A stretch of 64,000 nucleotides of DNA from Clostridia bacterium (GTDB taxonomy: Bacteria > Bacillota > Clostridia > UBA1212 > UBA1255). Every line of letters starts with the position of its first letter. Positions within the stretch are counted from its first letter, which is position 1. Below the pieces are notes generated by a model, which did no database searches, was not told the DNA's origin, and saw nothing but the letters and a program-made list of their open reading frames with translations. The position numbers and the translations under genes are program-made. The DNA lies in the NCBI GenBank assembly GCA_016287565.1, contig JAEFAM010000002.1, positions 7,648 through 71,647 on the forward strand. Reading direction: 5' to 3'. This document shows, piece by piece, positions 2,766 through 46,733 of the stretch.

Positions 2766-2905
2766 ATCGATCTCCTCCTTTCCTGCAGTATTTTGTGGCG
2801 GTCAACGCGGCCGCCCTATATATTGTATCACTTTGTGCGAAAAATAGCAACGAAAAGCGCGCCGTGCCTTAGTGCCTTCCGGACCTCCTGGCGGATGGCG
2901 TCTCT

Positions 2906-3841
2906 TCAGCGGAACCGGGGCTCCGACGTAAAGGTGCGGCGGGGCAGCAGCCCTTCCGGATCCAGTGAGACGCGCTCCTGGTCGAATTCGTATCTGGCGG
3001 CCCAGAGAGCCTGGTATTTAAGCCCCGTAAGGCGGTTCTGAGCCTCCCGGCCGTACTTGCCGTCGCCGGCGACCGGGAAGCCGAGATGAGCCAGATGGGC
3101 GCGGATCTGGTGGGTGCGGCCGGTGACCAGCATTGCCTCCAGGTCAGATATGACGGTGCCTCCCCTGCCTGCGGACCTGCCCTTGAGCCTGAGATGTGTC
3201 TCGATGGGGCGGAAGCCTTCCCTCTCTTCGTCGGACAAGGTCACCAGGCTCTCGCCGGAGCGTTTTCCCAGGAATCCGTAAAAAGGCCTCCAGGAGCCAT
3301 TTAGAGGCAGGATCGCCCCGGCATCCCCGATGACCTTGACCGCGTAGATCTTGCGGTAAAAACGGCCGTTAAGGGCATTTTTTACGGTTTCCGTGCGTTC
3401 GGGCCGCTTGGAGATGAATATAAGGCCTCCGGTGTTCCTGTCCAGCCGGTGGCAAAGCTCGAATTCCGACCTGTCTTCGCCCTTTTCTTCGCCGGCGGCT
3501 CGCACCAGCTCGATCAGGGACGGTTCTCCCGGCCTGGACGGATCCGGTTCGCTGAGGAGCCCCTGAGGCTTCTCGACCAGCATTACGCTGTCGTTCTCGT
3601 ACACGGTGACGATCCTGCCGGAGATCGCGCTCCCCGGGCCGTCCGGGTCGATATATGCGGTCACCACGTCTCCTTCGTGAAGCGCCAGTGCTCCGTCGCC
3701 GGTGCGGACGCCGTTGACCTTCACGTCCCGCTTGCGAAGCGCCCTTCGCAGCACGCCGTAGGGCACGAGAGAATATCTGGAGGCAAATATTTTCTCCAGC
3801 GCCCTGCCGTTTTCTTTTTCATTGACCGTGAATTCTATCAT
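2906..3841 (-). CDS. RluA-family 23S rRNA pseudouridine synthase (S4 domain plus PseudoU_synth_2)
   Basis: HRLDRNTGGLI catalytic Asp motif and GRTHQIRAHLAHLGFPVAGDGKYG motif. Confidence 0.8.
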   Translation of the reverse strand: MIEFTVNEKENGRALEKIFASRYSLVPYGVLRRALRKRDVKVNGVRTGDGALALHEGDVVTAYIDPDGPGSAISGRIVTVYENDSVMLVEKPQGLLSEPDPSRPGEPSLIELVRAAGEEKGEDRSEFELCHRLDRNTGGLIFISKRPERTETVKNALNGRFYRKIYAVKVIGDAGAILPLNGSWRPFYGFLGKRSGESLVTLSDEEREGFRPIETHLRLKGRSAGRGGTVISDLEAMLVTGRTHQIRAHLAHLGFPVAGDGKYGREAQNRLTGLKYQALWAARYEFDQERVSLDPEGLLPRRTFTSEPRFR

Positions 3842-13539: not shown

Positions 13540-13815
13540 CTGTGCAAAGTGATCTTCGCCTGCGGCGAGTGATCTTCGGCCTGACGGCCGAGTGATATTG
13601 CGCGGGGCGCAGTGATATTCGCCATACGGCGAGTGGTGTTGCGCGGCGCGAGCAGCTAAATTCGACTTCGTCGAGCGAAATTGAACCCTGACTGTTTAGC
13701 GGGGCTTTTCAGGGTTCAGCTAAATGCGACTTCGTCGCGCTAAATTCGTGCTGTCACACGAGCTAAATTCCGCATTGCGAGCAGTGAAATTCGACTTCGT
13801 CGAGGAAAATTGATC
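13540..13815. repeat. Array of mini-hairpins separated by the conserved octamer GTGATATT/GCTAAATT (top-strand orientation)
   Basis: About 12 units of roughly 20 nt. Each is an 11-16 nt palindrome (for example CGCCTGCGGCG, TGCGCGGGGCGCA, CGACTTCGTCG) followed by GTGATCTT, GTGATATT, GCTAAATT or GTGAAATT. Confidence 0.8.
13681..13719. repeat. Conserved hairpin class 2 (TTGAACCCTGA-loop-TCAGGGTTCAG) followed by CTAAAT
   Basis: 10-bp stem with a 19-nt loop. The same stem with a different loop occurs at 21208..21245. Confidence 0.7.
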
Positions 13816-14189: not shown

Positions 14190-14644
14190 ATTTAGCCGAA
14201 GCAGCAGGCTTCGATTTAGCTGTGAGCGCCAGCGAACAATTTAACTGAAGGCCGCAGGTTCCATTGTCTCTGAAAGCCTGCGGTCTTCAGTTTCACTCGC
14301 GCGCCAGCGCGAATTTAGCTCGGCCGTCAGGCCGAATTTAACTGCCGCAAAGAGGCAATTTAGCTTGACGAAGTCGAATTTAGCTGCTCGCCTCGCAAGC
14401 AATTTCGCTCGCGCGTCAGCGCGAACATCACTCCGCGAAGCGGAATATCACTTGCCCGCAGGGCAAATATCACTCGCGCGCCAGCGCGAATTTAGCTCGG
14501 CCGTCAGGCCGAATATCCCTCGCCGCAGGCGAATATCACTCGGCTCCAGTCTGACGTCAGGCCGAATATCCCTCGCCGCAGGCGAATATCACTCGGCTCC
14601 AGTCTGACGTCAGGCCGAATATCACCGCGGCTCCCACCTGCTCC
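14190..14644. repeat. Array of mini-hairpins with octamers AATTTAGC/AATATCAC (opposite orientation to 13540..13815), ending in 2.5 copies of a 59-bp unit
   Basis: Units such as CTCGCGCGCCAGCGCG-AATTTAGCT, CGGCCGTCAGGCCG-AATATCCCT and CGCCGCAGGCG-AATATCACT. The 59-bp unit contains the palindrome CTGACGTCAG. The array abuts the GH3 stop codon. Confidence 0.8.
14247..14288. repeat. Conserved hairpin class 1 (GAARRCCGCAGGYT-CCATTGTCTCTGAAA-AGCCTGCGGYYTTC)
   Basis: 14-bp stem. The loop is identical to the copy at 26787..26828 and differs by one nucleotide (CCATTGTCACTGAAA) from the copy at 24584..24625. Stem differences between copies are compensatory. Confidence 0.8.
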
Positions 14645-38749: not shown

Positions 38750-39275
38750 AAATTTAGGGGCGGGGCGCAGTGATATTCTGCTTCGCAGAGTGATATTGCG
38801 CGGGGCGCAGTGATATTGTGCTTCGCACAGCTAAATTACTCGCTTGCGCTCGCAGCTAAATTGCGTGCAGGGCACGCAGCTAAATCGAAGCCGTCCGGCT
38901 TCGGCTAAATTGACCTTCGGTCAGCTAAGCTCGGTTGCGGCGAGTGATATTGCGCGAAGCGCAGTGATATTCTGCTTCGCAGAGTGATATTGCGCGGGGC
39001 GCAGTGATATTCTGCTTCGCAGAGTGATATTGCGCGGGGCACAGTGATATTGTGCTTCGCACAGCTAAATTACTCGCTTGCGCTCGCAGCTAAATTGCGT
39101 GCAGGGCAAATTAAGCTGTTCGCGCCAGCGAACGATATCACTCGGCGAAGCCGAACATCACTCGCACGCAAGTGCGAATATCACTGCGAGTGTTAACGAG
39201 CAATATCACTTGGCGTAGCCGAACATCACTCGCACGCCGGTGCGAATATCACTGCTCATACCAGCGAGCAACAGG
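38750..39275. repeat. Large mini-hairpin/octamer array that switches orientation near 39115 (GTGATATT/GCTAAATT units, then GATATCACT/GAACATCACT units)
   Basis: Units of about 20 nt: TGCGCGGGGCGCA-GTGATATT, CTGCTTCGCAG-A-GTGATATT, GTGCTTCGCAC-AGCTAAATT and so on. A 150-bp block (38760-38910) is duplicated at 38950-39110. The right arm reads CGGCGAAGCCG-AACATCACT, CGCACGCAAGTGCG-AATATCACT. Confidence 0.8.
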
Positions 39276-40705: not shown

Positions 40706-41776
40706 TCACCCGAACGCCTTCTCCGTCTTTCCTCCCGCAGCTCTGAACATCCTGTTCATCACGGCGTCGTCAACGCCCTCGCACCCGGTGGATTCGGCGA
40801 ATATCACGTCAACGCCCCTCGCGTCGAACTGCCTGAGCGAATCGAACAGCGCCCTGGCGTGCTCCGCGCCGTCTTTCGCGGGCCCTAAAGACAGCACCGC
40901 GTCAGCGTCCTTATAATAGCAAATATGTTCCTGGGTTGCAAGAACTCCCACCCGTTTTCCCAGGGATTTTTCTTCCGAGATACGGTGCCTGATCGTCCCG
41001 GCCACGTCGTCCGCGTTGCCCTCGTAAAGTATCATCTCGGCGCCGGGAGCGTAGTGCCTGTATTTCATGCCGGGGCTGGGAGGCCGGTCAACGGCGCCTT
41101 CGTTAAAGCGCCAGTCGAACTCGCCGCATTGTCCCGCCACCCGGGCAATATCTTCCTTCGTCACGAATCCAGGCCGCAGCACCACCGGCTCCGTACCGCA
41201 CAGATCCACTACCGTGGATTCCACTCCCACTTCGCAGTCTCCTCCGTCAATTATGACGTCAACTCTACCCTTCATATCTTCGATTACGTGCGATGCCCTG
41301 GTTGGACTGGGACGCCCGGAGAGGTTGGCGCTGGGAGCGGCAATCGGCACCCCGGCCCGGAGTATGAGCTCCCGGGCAACTTTATTAGCAGGCATGCGTA
41401 TTCCTACGGTCTCCAGACCGCAGGTGACGCGGTAAGGCACGATATCCTTCCTGTGTATGATCATTGTGAGAGGCCCGGGCCAGAATCTGGCGCCCAGGGC
41501 GTAAAACAGTTCCTGCTGATGCTCGGACGAGAAACGACCCGCCCGGAGCGCGGTCTCGTAATTGGCCACGTGAACGATGAGAGGATTGTCCCCGGGGCGC
41601 CCCTTGGCCTCGAAGATATTGCCCACGGATTTGGCGTCGAAGGCGTTGGCCCCCAGCCCGTACACGGTCTCGGTAGGGAAAGCCACCAGGCCGCCGTAAC
41701 GTATCACGGCGCCGCAATATTCCATTTTTTCCGGCTCCGGCCTTGCCGGGTCTATCTTTACGATCTCGGTCTTCAT
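40706..41776 (-). CDS. tsaC: L-threonylcarbamoyladenylate synthase (Sua5/YwlC type with C-terminal Sua5 domain)
   Basis: YrdC fold motifs (VAFPTETVYGLGANA...PSAN) plus a C-terminal extension of about 130 aa. Confidence 0.8.
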   Translation of the reverse strand: MKTEIVKIDPARPEPEKMEYCGAVIRYGGLVAFPTETVYGLGANAFDAKSVGNIFEAKGRPGDNPLIVHVANYETALRAGRFSSEHQQELFYALGARFWPGPLTMIIHRKDIVPYRVTCGLETVGIRMPANKVARELILRAGVPIAAPSANLSGRPSPTRASHVIEDMKGRVDVIIDGGDCEVGVESTVVDLCGTEPVVLRPGFVTKEDIARVAGQCGEFDWRFNEGAVDRPPSPGMKYRHYAPGAEMILYEGNADDVAGTIRHRISEEKSLGKRVGVLATQEHICYYKDADAVLSLGPAKDGAEHARALFDSLRQFDARGVDVIFAESTGCEGVDDAVMNRMFRAAGGKTEKAFG

Positions 41777-41836
41777 ATCTTCTCGGTCTTCATATCTTCC
41801 CGGCCTTGATATCTTCCCGGCCTTCTTTGTTTCAGA

Positions 41837-42961: not shown

Positions 42962-44158
42962 TCAGAGCCAGTAAAGTTCTTCGAATATGGACATTGCGTA
43001 GGCGTCGGTCATGCCGGCTATGTAGTCGACGGTGATCTGTTCCGGAAGCGTTCCGGGCTCATACGCTTTTTCCTGTATGTACTTGATAAGGCGGGTGTCC
43101 AGGCGGTCGGGACCGTCGATGGAAGACATATCGAGGGCGCCGTATGAATCGACCTTGTCCTCCGCCTTGCCGAGCAGAGCGCAGACGCGGTTGTAGACCG
43201 CTTCGAAAAGGCCTTCTACGATGTTGTTGGTATTGGCCTCGTACCGCTTGATCATATCGGACTTGTATATCTTTTTGTAGTTCAGCTCGATCATCTCGCG
43301 CAGTGCCTGGCCGCACTCGTCGCTGAGGCGGATCTCGTCACGCTGGTAGCTGTTCTCCAGAAGGTCCTCCACCAGGGTGTTGATCATCTGGCCGTTGGTG
43401 GCGCCCAGCGTGGAACGGATGTCCTCCGGAATGCCGCTGTAGTCCATCATCTTGGCCCTGATGGCGTCTTCGATGTCCCGGCCCACGTAGGCTATCTTAT
43501 CCACCAGCCTCACCACACAGCCCTCCATAGTGGCAGGCATCTCCACGCGGTGCTCGCAGGTGTATATCTTCGACGGATCCTTTTTTCTGTTGGGCCGCAG
43601 GATGTATTCGTCAACGTTCTCGCCGCAGTGGCTCACGATGCCGTCCCGCACTTCGTACGTCAGGTTCAGGCCGCACTTGGACAATATCTTCTCCTGCGAT
43701 ATGCGGGTGGAAAGGCGGTCAACGACTCTCAGGCTGTGATATTCATGGCGGAACCGCAGCGCCGGATTGACCTTGTTCAGGCACTGATCCAGCTTTCTCT
43801 CGCCGCTGTGGCCGAAAGGCGCGTGGCCTATGTCGTGGCCCAGGGCAATGGCGGAGATCAGATCCTGGTTCAGCCCGAGAGTCCTGCCTATGGTGGTGGA
43901 TATGGAATTCACATACAGGACGTGCTCCATGCGGGTGCACACGTGGTCGTTCTTGGCGTTGAAGAACACCTGCGTCTTGTGCCTCAGCCGCCTGAAATCC
44001 TCCGAGTAGAGGATCCTGTTGGCGTCACGCTCGAATATTGACCGAACGTGGCATTCGGGCTCGTCGCTGAGGCGGCCCTTGCTGTCTCTGGCCCTGGTGG
44101 CCAGGGGGCTCAGCGTTTCTTCCTGTTTTAATCTTATCTCGCGCCAGGTCTCCGGCAT
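42962..44158 (-). CDS. dGTPase-like HD-domain deoxynucleoside triphosphate triphosphohydrolase
   Basis: HD motif ALGHDIGHAPFGH and overall dGTPase architecture. Start at ATG 44158 (MPETW) with AGGAGG Shine-Dalgarno. Confidence 0.75.
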   Translation of the reverse strand: MPETWREIRLKQEETLSPLATRARDSKGRLSDEPECHVRSIFERDANRILYSEDFRRLRHKTQVFFNAKNDHVCTRMEHVLYVNSISTTIGRTLGLNQDLISAIALGHDIGHAPFGHSGERKLDQCLNKVNPALRFRHEYHSLRVVDRLSTRISQEKILSKCGLNLTYEVRDGIVSHCGENVDEYILRPNRKKDPSKIYTCEHRVEMPATMEGCVVRLVDKIAYVGRDIEDAIRAKMMDYSGIPEDIRSTLGATNGQMINTLVEDLLENSYQRDEIRLSDECGQALREMIELNYKKIYKSDMIKRYEANTNNIVEGLFEAVYNRVCALLGKAEDKVDSYGALDMSSIDGPDRLDTRLIKYIQEKAYEPGTLPEQITVDYIAGMTDAYAMSIFEELYWL

Positions 44159-44169
44159 TGGCGACACCT

Positions 44170-44640
44170 CCTGTTGTTAGTGGGAAACGGGAAATGGCAA
44201 GTGGCAAATGGCAAGTGGGAAATGGAAAATGGCAAATGGCAAGTGGGAAATGGAAAATTATATTTTCCTCATTTTCAATCTGCACTTCTCGCTTTGCGTT
44301 TTTCAATTTCCGATTTGCAATTTCCAATTTGCAATTCTCAACTGGCAAGTGGGAAATGGCAAGTGGCAAATGGCAAATGGGAAATGATAATATCCTTTTC
44401 TCCTTTTCGATTTTCAACTATTCACTTGCAATTTGCAATTTCCAATTTGCAATTTTCTATCTTCCCCTTTTAATTTGCAATTTGCAATTTCCAATTTGCA
44501 ATTTTCAATTTGCAATTTCCAATTGTCACTTCGCAACTTTTAATTTGCAATTTGCCATTTGCAATTTGCAATTTTCAATTTGCAATTCTCCATTTGCCAT
44601 TTGCCATTTGCCATTTGCAATTTGCAATTTGCAACTAATC
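44170..44640. repeat. 470-bp intergenic block of heptanucleotide tandem repeats G[CG]AA[AG]TG alternating with complementary-orientation blocks CAATTT[GC]/CATTTGC
   Basis: Block 44175-44265 is (GCAAGTG/GCAAATG/GGAAATG/GAAAATG)n. Block 44300-44335 is (CAATTTC/CAATTTG)n. Block 44336-44385 is again (GSAARTG)n. Block 44420-44640 is (CAATTTG/CCATTTG)n. The track ORFs here (44025..44417, 44158..44679, 44174..44473, 44559..44771) are repeat translations. Confidence 0.85.
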
Positions 44641-44641
44641 C

Positions 44642-45607
44642 TCACGCCCACCACATCTCTCCCGCCTGCTCGAATATGAGCACTTCCTTCAGGAATTCGA
44701 TGGCTTTGTTGAGGCCTTCTTTGGGAGACATCAGCGAATCTTCGTGCTCGATGCTCACCACGTCGTCGTAGCCCACTTTCTTGAGCATGCTGACGATCTC
44801 TTTCCAGGTGGCAAGGTCGTGGCCGTAGCCCATTGTGCGGAACACCCAGGCGCGGTGGAGCACGTCGCCGTAATGCTTGGTGTCCAGCACGCCGTTCTTA
44901 GCTACGTTGGCGTCGTCCAGCTTAACGTCTTTGCCGTGGAAATAATATACGGCGTCGCCCAGTTCGCGGATGGCTTCCACCGGATCCATCCCCTGCCAGA
45001 ACAGGTGGCTGGGATCCACGTTGGCGCCGATCATATCTCCTACCGCCGCTCTCAGTTTAAGCAGCGTTTCGGGGTTGTACACGCAGAATCCGGGGTGCAT
45101 CTCGAATGCGATCTTCTCGATACCGTGGGCAGCGGCAAATTCGGCGGTCTTCTTCCAGTAAGGGATCAACACTTCGTTCCACTGGTAGTCCAGTATCTTC
45201 AGGAAATCGTCGGGCCAGGGGCAGGTCACCCAGTTGGGATATTTGGAATCGGGGCAATCTCCGGGGCAGCCCGAGAAGCCTACGATGCGCTTTACTCCAA
45301 GCTTTTCCGCCAGCAGTATGGCGTCGATGAAATCCTCGTGGAAGGCCGAAGCCACTTTCTTATCCGGATGCACGGGGTTGCCGTGGCAGGAAAGCGCGGA
45401 GATCTCCAGGCCGTTGCCGCAGATGGCGGCCTTGAACTCGTCGAGCTTTTTGGGATCGGAAAGCAGGACCTTGGGGTCCGCGTGAGCCTTGCCCGGGAAG
45501 CCGCCGCAGCCTATCTCTACGCACTGCACTCCCTGGCCTGCCAGGTATTTCATGGCGTCCGCCAGTTTCATCTCGCCTAAAACTACGTTAAAAACTCCTA
45601 ATTTCAT
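44642..45607 (-). CDS. Xylose-isomerase-like TIM-barrel sugar phosphate isomerase/epimerase
   Basis: AP-endonuclease-2/xylose-isomerase fold pattern (IEHED, metal-binding His/Glu/Asp positions). Confidence 0.6.
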   Translation of the reverse strand: MKLGVFNVVLGEMKLADAMKYLAGQGVQCVEIGCGGFPGKAHADPKVLLSDPKKLDEFKAAICGNGLEISALSCHGNPVHPDKKVASAFHEDFIDAILLAEKLGVKRIVGFSGCPGDCPDSKYPNWVTCPWPDDFLKILDYQWNEVLIPYWKKTAEFAAAHGIEKIAFEMHPGFCVYNPETLLKLRAAVGDMIGANVDPSHLFWQGMDPVEAIRELGDAVYYFHGKDVKLDDANVAKNGVLDTKHYGDVLHRAWVFRTMGYGHDLATWKEIVSMLKKVGYDDVVSIEHEDSLMSPKEGLNKAIEFLKEVLIFEQAGEMWWA

Positions 45608-45619
45608 ATGGCACCGTCC

Positions 45620-46733
45620 TTATTTGTTTTTATTGAATTCCGCCGCTAAATAAGCGTTTATAAATCCGTCGATATGGCCGTTCATGACCCTGTCCACCAT
45701 CGTTTCTTCGTAGGAAGTGCGGTGGTCTTTCACCAGCGTGTACGGACAAAATACGTAGGAGCGTATCTGGCTGCCCCAGGCGATCTCCATCTGGACGCCT
45801 TTCAGGTCTTCGATGCGGGCAACGTTTTCACGCTGCTTGATCTCGAACAGCTTGGACCTCAGCATGCGCATGGCGGTCTCCCTGTTCTGGACCTGGGAAC
45901 GCTCGGTCTGGCAGGCAACGGTGATGCCGGTGGGCTTGTGGGTGATGCGCACCGCGGAGTCGGTCTTGTTGACCTTCTGGCCGCCGGCGCCGGATGAGCG
46001 GTACGTGCCCACGTCCAGGTCTTCGGGACGGATGTCGATCTCGATGGTGTCGTCGATCTCGGGCATGACTTCCACGGAGGCGAAAGAGGTGTGTCGCCTT
46101 CCCGCGGCGTCGAAGGGAGATATGCGCACCAGCCGGTGCACGCCGTGCTCCGACTTCAAAAAGCCGTAGGCGTTGTCCCCGTTGAACTGCACCACCGCGC
46201 TCTTCAGGCCAGCCTCGTCGCCGTCAAGATAGTCCACTACCTTGACCTCGAAGCCGTGGTCCTCTCCCCAGCGGCAATACATCCTGAACAACATGGAGCC
46301 CCAGTCCTGAGACTCGGTGCCTCCCGCGCCGGGATGTATGGTGAGGATGGCGTTGTTGGCGTCGTACTCTCCGGTGAGCAGCGTCTCCAGACGCAGCATC
46401 TCGAATTCTTCGTTATATTTCTCGATGGTCTCCGCCACCTGGGCAGGCATCGATTCGTCGTTTTCCTCGTTGCCCAGCATGATCATCAGCTGGATCTCCT
46501 CCAGCATCGATTCCAGATGCTGGAATTTTCCGAGTTTGGTCTTGAGCACTTTAAGGTGCTTCAAAGTGGCCTGGGAATTTTCCTGATCGTTCCAGAAATC
46601 CGGCTCGGAAGCCTTATTTTCCAGCTCTTCGATCAGATTTGACATGCCCTCCGTGTCAAAGTGAATCCCTCAGATCATATAAATTTTTCTGGAGCCCGTC
46701 GATGGCCTGGGCGTATTGATCCAGTTCAAACAT
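45620..46733 (-). CDS. prfB: Peptide chain release factor 2, expressed through a programmed +1 frameshift
   Basis: SPF tripeptide and GGQ motif. ORF0 is ATG(46733)...LRDSL then CTT-TGA-C at about 46655-46661, after which the +1 frame continues DTEGMSNLIEEL. A partial Shine-Dalgarno (AGGGAT) lies upstream of the shift site. Confidence 0.85.
46650..46665 (-). other. prfB +1 ribosomal frameshift site (CUU UGA C) with upstream internal SD-like AGGGAU
   Basis: Reverse complement of 46640-46675 reads ...AGGGATTCACTTTGACACGGAGGGCATG. Confidence 0.8.

Follow-up and report, generated by a model that had tools for sequence, protein, structure and literature searches.

A decayed heptanucleotide tandem repeat of alternating orientation in the spacer between a TIM-barrel gene and a dNTP triphosphohydrolase gene of a Clostridia bacterium

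Introduction

Heptanucleotides are the commonest long simple sequence repeats (SSRs) in prokaryotes (Mrazek 2007, as summarised in PMC4679880; PMC4692102). We describe a repeat of this type from a 64,000-nucleotide stretch of DNA of a Clostridia bacterium (GenBank assembly GCA_016287565.1, contig JAEFAM010000002.1, positions 7,648 to 71,647 of the forward strand), which is referred to below as the window. The repeat, referred to as the tract, occupies window positions 44181 to 44634. It fills the spacer between two minus-strand genes, the upstream one encoding a xylose-isomerase-like TIM barrel protein (TIM) and the downstream one an HD-domain dNTP triphosphohydrolase (HD). A preliminary description of the window had reported this block of heptamers and had offered two readings of it, a phase-variable switch and an array of protein-binding sites. 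The tract is tandem, exceeds chance expectation, is non-coding and is polymorphic in length, and as such is a heptanucleotide long SSR, a kind of element that is already known.

Several described systems are close enough to be compared with it. In 1990, Mazel et al. are said to have described short tandemly repeated repetitive (STRR) heptamers in cyanobacteria. Repetitive extragenic palindromic (REP) elements and bacterial interspersed mosaic elements (BIMEs) of enterobacteria have units that are imperfect palindromes of 20 to 40 bp, occur as hundreds of dispersed copies and are linked to RAYT transposases. When transcribed, REP and BIME hairpins affect mRNA stability and termination. Background on REP elements is given in the abstract of PMC3733652. 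Heptamer families in Geobacter have the units GGGACCG and MTYCTGA. In marine Beggiatoaceae, TAACTGA repeats occur at 169 sites per genome in sets of two to six perfect copies, which are hardly ever inverted, and a post-transcriptional regulatory role has been proposed for them (MacGregor 2015, PMC4679880). Finally, the (ATCTTTC)n repeat in the 5' untranslated region (UTR) of Haemophilus influenzae hmw1A and hmw2A is transcribed into RNA that forms a long hairpin cleaved by RNase III, and expression is graded by the length of the repeat (PMC12721329, PMC8262952).

Results

Architecture of the tract

The 7-bp periodicity extends over 454 bp, a span equal to 65 unit lengths, and the GC content of the tract is 36%, versus 56% for the window. 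Tandem Repeats Finder (TRF) reports four period-7 arrays within it (78% to 82% match) as well as higher-order periods of 14, 28 and 49 bp. The copy number is ~53 by TRF, and 43 to 44 units fit a strict consensus. Beside these values, the “about 60 copies” of the preliminary description is a fair figure. Its heptamer block was also found where it had been placed, AT-rich, alternating in orientation and carrying every unit that it had named (GCAAGTG, GCAAATG, GGAAATG and GAAAATG in one orientation, and CAATTTG, CAATTTC and CCATTTG in the other). A two-unit pattern with one mismatch allowed was matched 28 times in the 64-kb window, always within 44195 to 44634, versus 0.05 matches expected, and a chance origin of the tract is therefore excluded. 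By both TRF and the pattern scan, the tract is the sole long heptamer array of the window, so that the search for further copies that had been suggested returned no other such array in these 64 kb.

Read on the plus strand, the tract consists of four blocks in the order A-rich, T-rich, A-rich and T-rich. Block A (44181 to 44258; 11.1 copies by TRF, with a period of 28 at 95% match) contains GCAAGTG, GCAAATG, GGAAATG and GAAAATG in the A-rich orientation, which read CACUUGC and CAUUUGC on the gene (minus) strand, and the block stops 9 nt short of the HD Shine-Dalgarno site. An AT-rich turn (44259 to 44269), which lies within the palindrome GGAAAATTATATTTTCC and is the loop of the predicted A/B hairpin, separates it from block B (44270 to 44336). 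Block B has ~9.5 degenerate units in the opposite orientation (TTTGCAA, TTTCCAA and TTTTCAA on the plus strand), and 5.3 copies at 44300 to 44336 are reported by TRF. Block C (44339 to 44386; ~7 units, 6.9 copies by TRF) has the orientation of block A and is composed of GCAAGTG, GGAAATG and GCAAATG. After a non-repeat linker of 36 nt (44387 to 44422), block D (44423 to 44634) adds ~30 units, of which TRF reports 29.9 copies at 44426 to 44634. These are TTTGCAA, TTTGCCA, TTTCCAA and TTTTCAA on the plus strand (GCAAAUU and GCAAAUG on the gene strand). A single 7-bp register is kept over the ~30 units of this block, which has a higher-order period of 49 bp and starts 7 nt beyond the TIM stop codon. 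Perfect runs in the tract reach 4.1 and 3.1 units at the longest, and no exact internal repeat exceeds 32 bp (copies at 44426 and 44475). With perfect runs of at most 4.1 units, the tract is a decayed repeat.

The orthologous junction in relatives

TIM–HD junctions of relatives were gathered by a metagenome scan, a protein search, exact-protein look-ups and inspection of cluster members (loci are designated by L and a number). The closest relative, L236 (TIM 96.6% and HD 94.6% identical in nucleotides), has a spacer of 37 bp without any heptamer. L236 and the window differ over a segment that opens just past the TIM stop codon and closes 11 nt inside the HD gene. The expansion of the tract in the window was recent. 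Spacers were also free of repeats in L237 and L238 (~83% nucleotide identity; 30 bp) and in L126 (HD 84% identical in amino acids; ~34 bp). In L138 to L140 (HD 67%) the two genes are separated by 1 bp with nothing in it, and in L136 (HD 68%) the TIM gene is absent and prfB abuts the HD gene.

Heptamers of the same type occupy the site in other lineages. L123 and L125 (HD 80% to 85%) have a 74-bp spacer with three GCAAGTG-type units followed by four inverted ones, which form a small hairpin. L132 (HD 81%) has ~9 units in a single orientation in 79 bp, and L122 (HD 81%) has ~40 units, all in the sense orientation, in 287 bp. The contig of L058 (HD 80%) starts inside an array, so that its spacer is at least 70 bp, with units as far as the end of the contig. 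L058 and L126 do not differ over the initial 237 nt of the HD gene (100% identity), and of the two only L058 has the array. Unit variants in the orthologues include GCAAGTG, GACAAGT and TATAAGT. The preliminary description had proposed that repeat number be compared between isolates, and such polymorphism was found, with 0, ~7, ~9, ~40 and ~60 units at the orthologous site.

Two further kinds of filler were seen. In L128 (junction at 2891 to 3000) and likewise in L129 to L131 (HD 81%; spacer 110 bp), heptamers are replaced by a terminator-like GC hairpin, GGCTGTCCCGGCCTTCCGGGCAGCC, that is followed by T7 (the site reads GGCTGTCCCGG...CCGGGCAGCC and then T7), and read-through at the TIM–HD junction may therefore vary by lineage. 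In L133 (2850 to 3000) and likewise in L134 and L135 (HD 77%; spacer 151 bp), the spacer holds other repeats of 8 to 10 bp (GCGGCAYRAG type), namely GCGGCATGAG and GCGGCACGAG followed by GCGGCATAAA and GCGGCACAAA with a 10-bp period, which indicates that the site attracts more than one kind of tandem repeat.

Taken together, the junctions indicate that TIM and HD were ancestrally tightly spaced and that a heptamer seed of the GCAARTG type has been expanding, inverting and disappearing at one site. The tract can be missing, and conservation extends to neither its sequence nor its structure. By this comparison it is lineage-specific and dispensable, and it appears to have no sequence-specific function. 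Note that every orthologous spacer with room for one has a purine-rich site of the GGAGG type before the HD ATG, whatever the filler.

Predicted structure and regulatory signals

The inverted arms of the tract extend up to 106 nt at 73% complementarity, with 42 nt at 86%. For gene-strand RNA, a free energy of −144.9 kcal/mol (z −3.45) was predicted for 44150 to 44650, and the constituent pairs of blocks gave −36.9 kcal/mol (z −2.64) for B with A (44176 to 44338) and −84.2 kcal/mol (z −3.54) for D with C (44339 to 44641). The interval 44150 to 44650 folded as DNA gave −89.5 kcal/mol (z −4.2). The preliminary description had held that the block could form hairpins or cruciforms, and the inverted arms and these negative z-scores for RNA and DNA predict as much. 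Antisense RNA from the plus strand is predicted to fold better still (−160.6 kcal/mol, z −8.05) because GCAAGUG variants can form G-U pairs with CAUUUGC. We take this asymmetry as a hint at most, as a single slippage-amplified variant (GCAAGTG) would alone produce it.

Five weak promoter-like matches (9 of 12 positions) were found in the tract region versus 1.0 expected, which we attribute to the resemblance of the unit TTGCAA to TTGACA. A search of Rfam 15 at a permissive E-value gave no match to the tract at gathering score; the best was RsaOG (31.5 bits versus a threshold of 50), and the remaining hits on the tract were chance microRNA matches. No credible Rfam hit was obtained for ten related loci.

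Assembly of the tract

Positions 44101 to 44700 are identical in NCBI assemblies GCA_016295045.1 (contig JAEEGI010000398.1) and GCA_016648375.1. In addition, an exact copy of an open reading frame (ORF) of 161 aa that spans the repeat is present on all six of the six contigs that carry the TIM allele of the window, from which it follows that the tract is identical in six assemblies. The preliminary description had allowed for a misassembly. The window does come from a metagenome assembly, and comparable arrays are found at contig ends elsewhere (L058, L076, L005 and L041), as would be expected if a simple repeat had been misassembled or collapsed. Against this, unit variants make the tract nearly unique, and with a longest exact internal repeat of only 32 bp its assembly is unambiguous. 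The sequence recurs in the second assembly, GCA_016648375.1, as does the repeat ORF on six contigs, and related arrays stand at the same site in orthologous loci of unrelated assemblies. We regard the probability of an artefact as negligible.

Arrays of the tract's heptamer often lie at contig ends (L058 1 to 70, L076 6403 to 6595, L005 1 to 50 and L041 4 to 24). In L076, from Kiritimatiellia, an array of nearly perfect CATTTGC units, at least 25 in number, runs off the end of its contig. Arrays of this type break short-read assemblies, to judge by the several related ones that end contigs.

The heptamer unit in other genomes

One genome per species was scanned for three tandem TTTGCMA units, and >119 stretches in many phyla were recovered. 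Among the matches listed were Planctomycetota, Chloroflexota (Anaerolineae), Acidobacteriota, Latescibacterota, Kiritimatiellia, Patescibacteria, Clostridia and others. Permuted, composition-matched heptamers served as controls in a viral collection (viral contigs, unlike the genomes of the cross-phylum scan), where they gave 59 and 13 stretches versus 23 for the tract unit. GCAAATT/GCAAATG was accordingly rejected as a special cross-phylum element; the unit recurs across phyla because tandem heptamers are generally abundant. Loci fetched from the matches listed contained 262 heptamer arrays whose units were diverse (L095 has ten arrays within 8 kb), which agrees with the published predominance of heptanucleotides among long prokaryotic SSRs. 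Also among the matches listed, 122 clusters of the same unit in other genomes spanned 28 bp in the median and 183 bp at most, and the ~455-bp tract is exceptional in size only.

Orientation was counted with strand-specific patterns, since TTGCAA is itself palindromic. Across phyla, array orientation relative to flanking genes, as called by a crude open-frame caller, was unbiased (~10 sense versus 11 antisense). Note that calls of an array as inside an ORF cannot be relied on, as the units are free of stop codons in all frames. The order of the arms in inverted pairs showed a bias: among 26 adjacent inverted pairs of arrays in the fetched loci, from Planctomycetota, Acidobacteriota, Chloroflexota and other phyla, the A-rich arm came first in 22 and the T-rich arm first in 1, and strict unit patterns gave 11 versus 1. 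Examples are L008 (2858 to 2992), L036 (6194 to 6314), L044 (3085 to 3207), L099 (5314 to 5435) and L039 (2348 to 2511). An A-rich-first order reads alike from either strand, so the bias is not a strand artefact. The tract conforms to it as two such elements in tandem, and in some planctomycete examples (L099 and L082) a GC-rich hairpin separates the arms. The pairs are few in number and were drawn by way of a single unit, and we treat the polarity as a lead.

In three loci from metagenome-assembled genomes (MAGs) of rumen Clostridia and Mageeibacillus, L018 (2200 to 2290), L097 (3520 to 3700) and L048 (4180 to 4230), heptamer arrays adjoin a conserved inverted motif, GCCATCACTCGGTTCGCC and CGAAGCCGAGTGAATGGC, that resembles the CACTCGG core of Gut-1-type repeats in the window. 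A link between heptamer arrays and those repeats was considered and rejected, as Rfam Gut-1 had no match in L018, L097 or L048.

Neighboring genes and other repeats

The spacer filled by the tract is 483 bp. The HD/HD_assoc dNTP triphosphohydrolase gene (dGTPase-like; PF01966 and PF13286) lies at 42962 to 44158 on the minus strand, with its ATG at 44158 and the Shine-Dalgarno site AGGAGG at 44167 to 44172 (minus strand), 8 nt upstream of the ATG. The TIM gene (sugar-phosphate isomerase/epimerase family; PF01261, E 1.5e-32) lies at 44642 to 45607 on the minus strand and stops with TGA at 44644 to 44642. These are the flanking genes that the preliminary description had recognized. Its term “promoter-proximal” is not supported by what was found: the tract is close to a start codon and Shine-Dalgarno site, at an operon junction that is tight in relatives. 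The two genes belong to a conserved row of prfB, TIM, HD, prfA, sua5 and upp, which the gene for RNase R precedes. HD homologues of 63% to 81% identity are named dGTPase or dNTP triphosphohydrolase and come from Clostridia, Ruminococcaceae or Oscillospiraceae MAGs, and by these names the host is probably an uncultured Clostridia bacterium of gut or rumen type.

The 161-aa ORF through the repeat (44194 to 44679, plus strand) has been entered as a gene in the public annotation of the contig. Its translation across the tract is repetitive (MASGKWQVGNGKWQ...), it has no Pfam hit and is absent from the orthologues, and the exact sequence was not a cluster member in the protein collection searched. 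The suggestion that the ORFs in the tract are repeat artefacts therefore holds.

Elsewhere in the row, prfB has the classical programmed +1 frameshift, with a short ORF0 running from the ATG at 46733 to CTT TGA C (46662 to 46656, minus strand). Due to this frameshift the called 341-aa ORF misses the true N-terminus. L128, L132 and L133 share the frameshift site. The prfA–sua5 spacer is filled by a 17-bp tandem repeat of the GAAGGCCGGGAAGATAT type (41767 to 41825, 3.5 copies), and unrelated tandem repeats occupy other spacers of the row in relatives, for example one of 21 bp that precedes prfB in L133. Tandem repeats between genes may be commonplace across this lineage. The 20- to 23-bp or “octamer” arrays found at other places in the window are built from a small, variable GC hairpin with AGTGATATT or CAGCTAAAT after it. 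Among them are matches to Gut-1 RNA (RF01706) above the gathering score (66, 54 and 51.5 bits), which lie at 38768 to 38841 and 38922 to 38995 on the plus strand and at 14397 to 14475 on the minus strand. The surrounding arrays (13548 to 13652, 14401 to 14623 and 38768 to 39271) are tandem copies in both orientations at two loci.

Discussion

Proposed origin and effect

The comparisons above show the tract to be a lineage-specific, dispensable and decayed heptanucleotide SSR with the potential to fold. We consider it probable, although well short of certain, that it is of slippage origin and that it decouples or modulates expression of the HD gene. On this proposal, the repeat would have grown by replication slippage, including multi-unit duplications of 14, 28 and 49 bp, and blocks would have been inverted by inverted duplication or template switching. 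Growth would have taken place in the spacer between the TIM and HD cistrons of the row prfB–TIM–HD–prfA–sua5–upp, and its consequence would be physical, in that 483 nt of AT-rich RNA now lie between cistrons that were once adjacent. This RNA is predicted to fold into two long imperfect hairpins, D with C and B with A. If the tract is transcribed with the operon, HD expression could be decoupled from that of the upstream genes and modulated through cleavage by a double-strand-specific RNase, through a block to exonucleases, or through transcription that pauses or terminates in part. Changes in length would then tune HD expression over evolutionary time, with no rapid on/off switching.

Several observations weigh against this proposal. 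We infer co-transcription from gene order and from the tight junctions of relatives, and the terminator-like hairpin of L128 indicates that read-through at the junction is not universal; in the window, a scan of 43900 to 44900 detected no terminator-like site on the gene strand. The hairpin is not conserved, since the single-orientation array of L122 folds no better than shuffles (−67.6 kcal/mol, z −1.05), and any structural role would be lineage-specific at best. The much better fold of the antisense strand has no use in the proposal. The same family of units stands at the same site in several lineages that are ~80% identical to each other, and it is possible that this recurrence reflects an ancestral seed with repeated loss, or recombination between strains. 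Finally, the data fit a purely neutral tract just as well.

Alternative explanations

The main rival is a neutral or selfish repeat, a mutational by-product that has no effect on the expression of either neighbor. It would account for the absence of the tract from the closest relative and several others in an otherwise unchanged gene row, for the lack of constraint on length, unit variants and orientation among orthologues, and for the decay of the tract. Unrelated tandem repeats in other spacers of the row (17 bp at 41767 to 41825; 21 bp and 8 to 10 bp in L133) and control heptamers as common as the tract unit also fit it. What speaks against complete neutrality is that 450 nt of hairpin-forming RNA placed directly 5' of a Shine-Dalgarno site, at a once-tight junction, is unlikely to be fully without effect, and that neutral slippage alone does not predict the 22 versus 1 polarity of inverted heptamer arrays. 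We judge this rival to be rather unlikely, although the most probable of the alternatives, and the proposal of a modulating SSR remains our preferred one. The polarity resembles the A-tract, hairpin and T-tract of bidirectional intrinsic terminators, and by that analogy inverted heptamer arrays could form a cross-phylum class of self-expanding hairpins of fixed polarity, possibly terminators or insulators extended by slippage. This is a doubtful idea at present. If it were true, terminator or insulator strength would be tuned by unit number, and the tract would be by far the largest example, situated in an operon junction.

The remaining alternatives assign the tract a more specific function. 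A contingency switch, in which slipped-strand mispairing often alters the number of units and so switches or grades the HD dNTPase, has in its favor the position of a 7-bp tandem repeat immediately 5' of a start codon, large length differences between related genomes, and the precedent of a transcribed, hairpin-forming heptamer repeat in a 5' UTR that grades expression (PMC12721329, PMC8262952). Slippage rate, however, depends on uninterrupted identical units, and no perfect run here exceeds 4.1 of them; six assemblies carry the tract unchanged; and the downstream enzyme is a housekeeping one, not a surface, host-interaction or restriction-modification product. In addition, the tract is intercistronic and outside any ORF, where unit number would not alter a reading frame, and at 455 bp is far too long to act through promoter spacing, co-directional genes that are 1 to 37 bp apart in relatives mark an operon junction and not a spacing-sensitive promoter, and the host is a commensal Clostridia bacterium and not a host-adapted pathogen with known contingency loci. 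Thus of the switch that had been suggested, the slippage-type repeat and its length polymorphism between relatives were upheld, and a working switch was not, as the tract is decayed, invariant and at an operon junction before a housekeeping gene. A classical phase-variable switch is unlikely, and a contingency switch of any such kind is improbable. The suggested array of binding sites for a DNA- or RNA-binding protein, acting as a titrating sponge or as a landing pad for a nucleoid protein, found no support and is very improbable: the many copies of a short motif, the AT-rich composition within a 56% GC genome and the analogy with S1, Csp or CsrA binding proposed for TAACTGA repeats (PMC4679880) are outweighed by orthologous sites that differ in unit, orientation or repeat or have none, by the occurrence of one such array in 64 kb, by a unit no commoner than permuted controls and by the lack of a candidate binding protein encoded nearby. 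Least credible among these functions is a structured antisense RNA from the plus strand. Its fold lies far beyond that of shuffles and is better than that of the gene strand (z −8.05 versus −3.45), and there are two weak promoter-like sites on that strand; the Rfam match to RsaOG, however, is below threshold, the structure is not conserved in orthologues, the promoter matches reach only 9 of 12 positions, and the strand asymmetry, which amplification of GCAAGTG can produce, is not independent evidence.

Significance

As a single locus the tract matters little. It is an unusually large and well-documented example of the speed with which a heptamer repeat can arise at an operon junction, invert, reach ~450 bp or be lost, against flanking genes that remain 95% to 97% identical. 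The A-rich-first rule would be the more interesting result, if it is upheld in a full census. Tracts of this type get annotated as genes in error, as with the 161-aa ORF here, and should not be read as contingency loci without read-level evidence. The natural alleles with 0, 7, 9, 40 and 60 units would provide a ready-made series for effects of repeat length and orientation on downstream expression.

Comparison with known systems

A literature search for the exact repeat strings returned no relevant paper, and the comparison is made with systems of similar build. Like the prokaryotic heptanucleotide SSRs summarised in PMC4679880 and PMC4692102, the tract is non-coding and sporadic in its phylogenetic distribution, and those SSRs are attributed to polymerase slippage. 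It differs from the same-unit clusters of other genomes in being longer, degenerate and arranged in four blocks of alternating orientation, and in belonging to an uncultured Clostridia lineage. With the cyanobacterial STRRs it shares tandem 7-nt units, an intergenic position and the lack of an assigned function. The occurrence of several unit families in one genome, a further likeness to STRRs, was seen in other sampled genomes (L095) and not in the window. The tract departs from STRRs in its Clostridia host, its units and its occurrence as one array in 64 kb in place of many dispersed copies.

REP elements and BIMEs resemble the tract in having units of alternating orientation in intercistronic or 3' spacers of operons, in forming hairpins and in being present or absent between close relatives. 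The unit of the tract, however, is 7 bp and not palindromic, and was expanded in place at one locus in the window. TAACTGA repeats are, like the tract, intergenic direct heptamer repeats that end a few nucleotides upstream of the start codons of housekeeping genes; unlike them, the tract has ~60 degenerate copies in both orientations at one site. The hmw repeat, which is likewise a 7-bp tandem repeat ahead of a start codon, is perfect, variable within populations and attached to an adhesin gene, whereas the tract is decayed, invariant in six assemblies and attached to a housekeeping gene. Without claiming that the tract belongs with it, we regard the hmw repeat, by analogy, as the best mechanistic model for any effect that the tract may have on the expression of HD.

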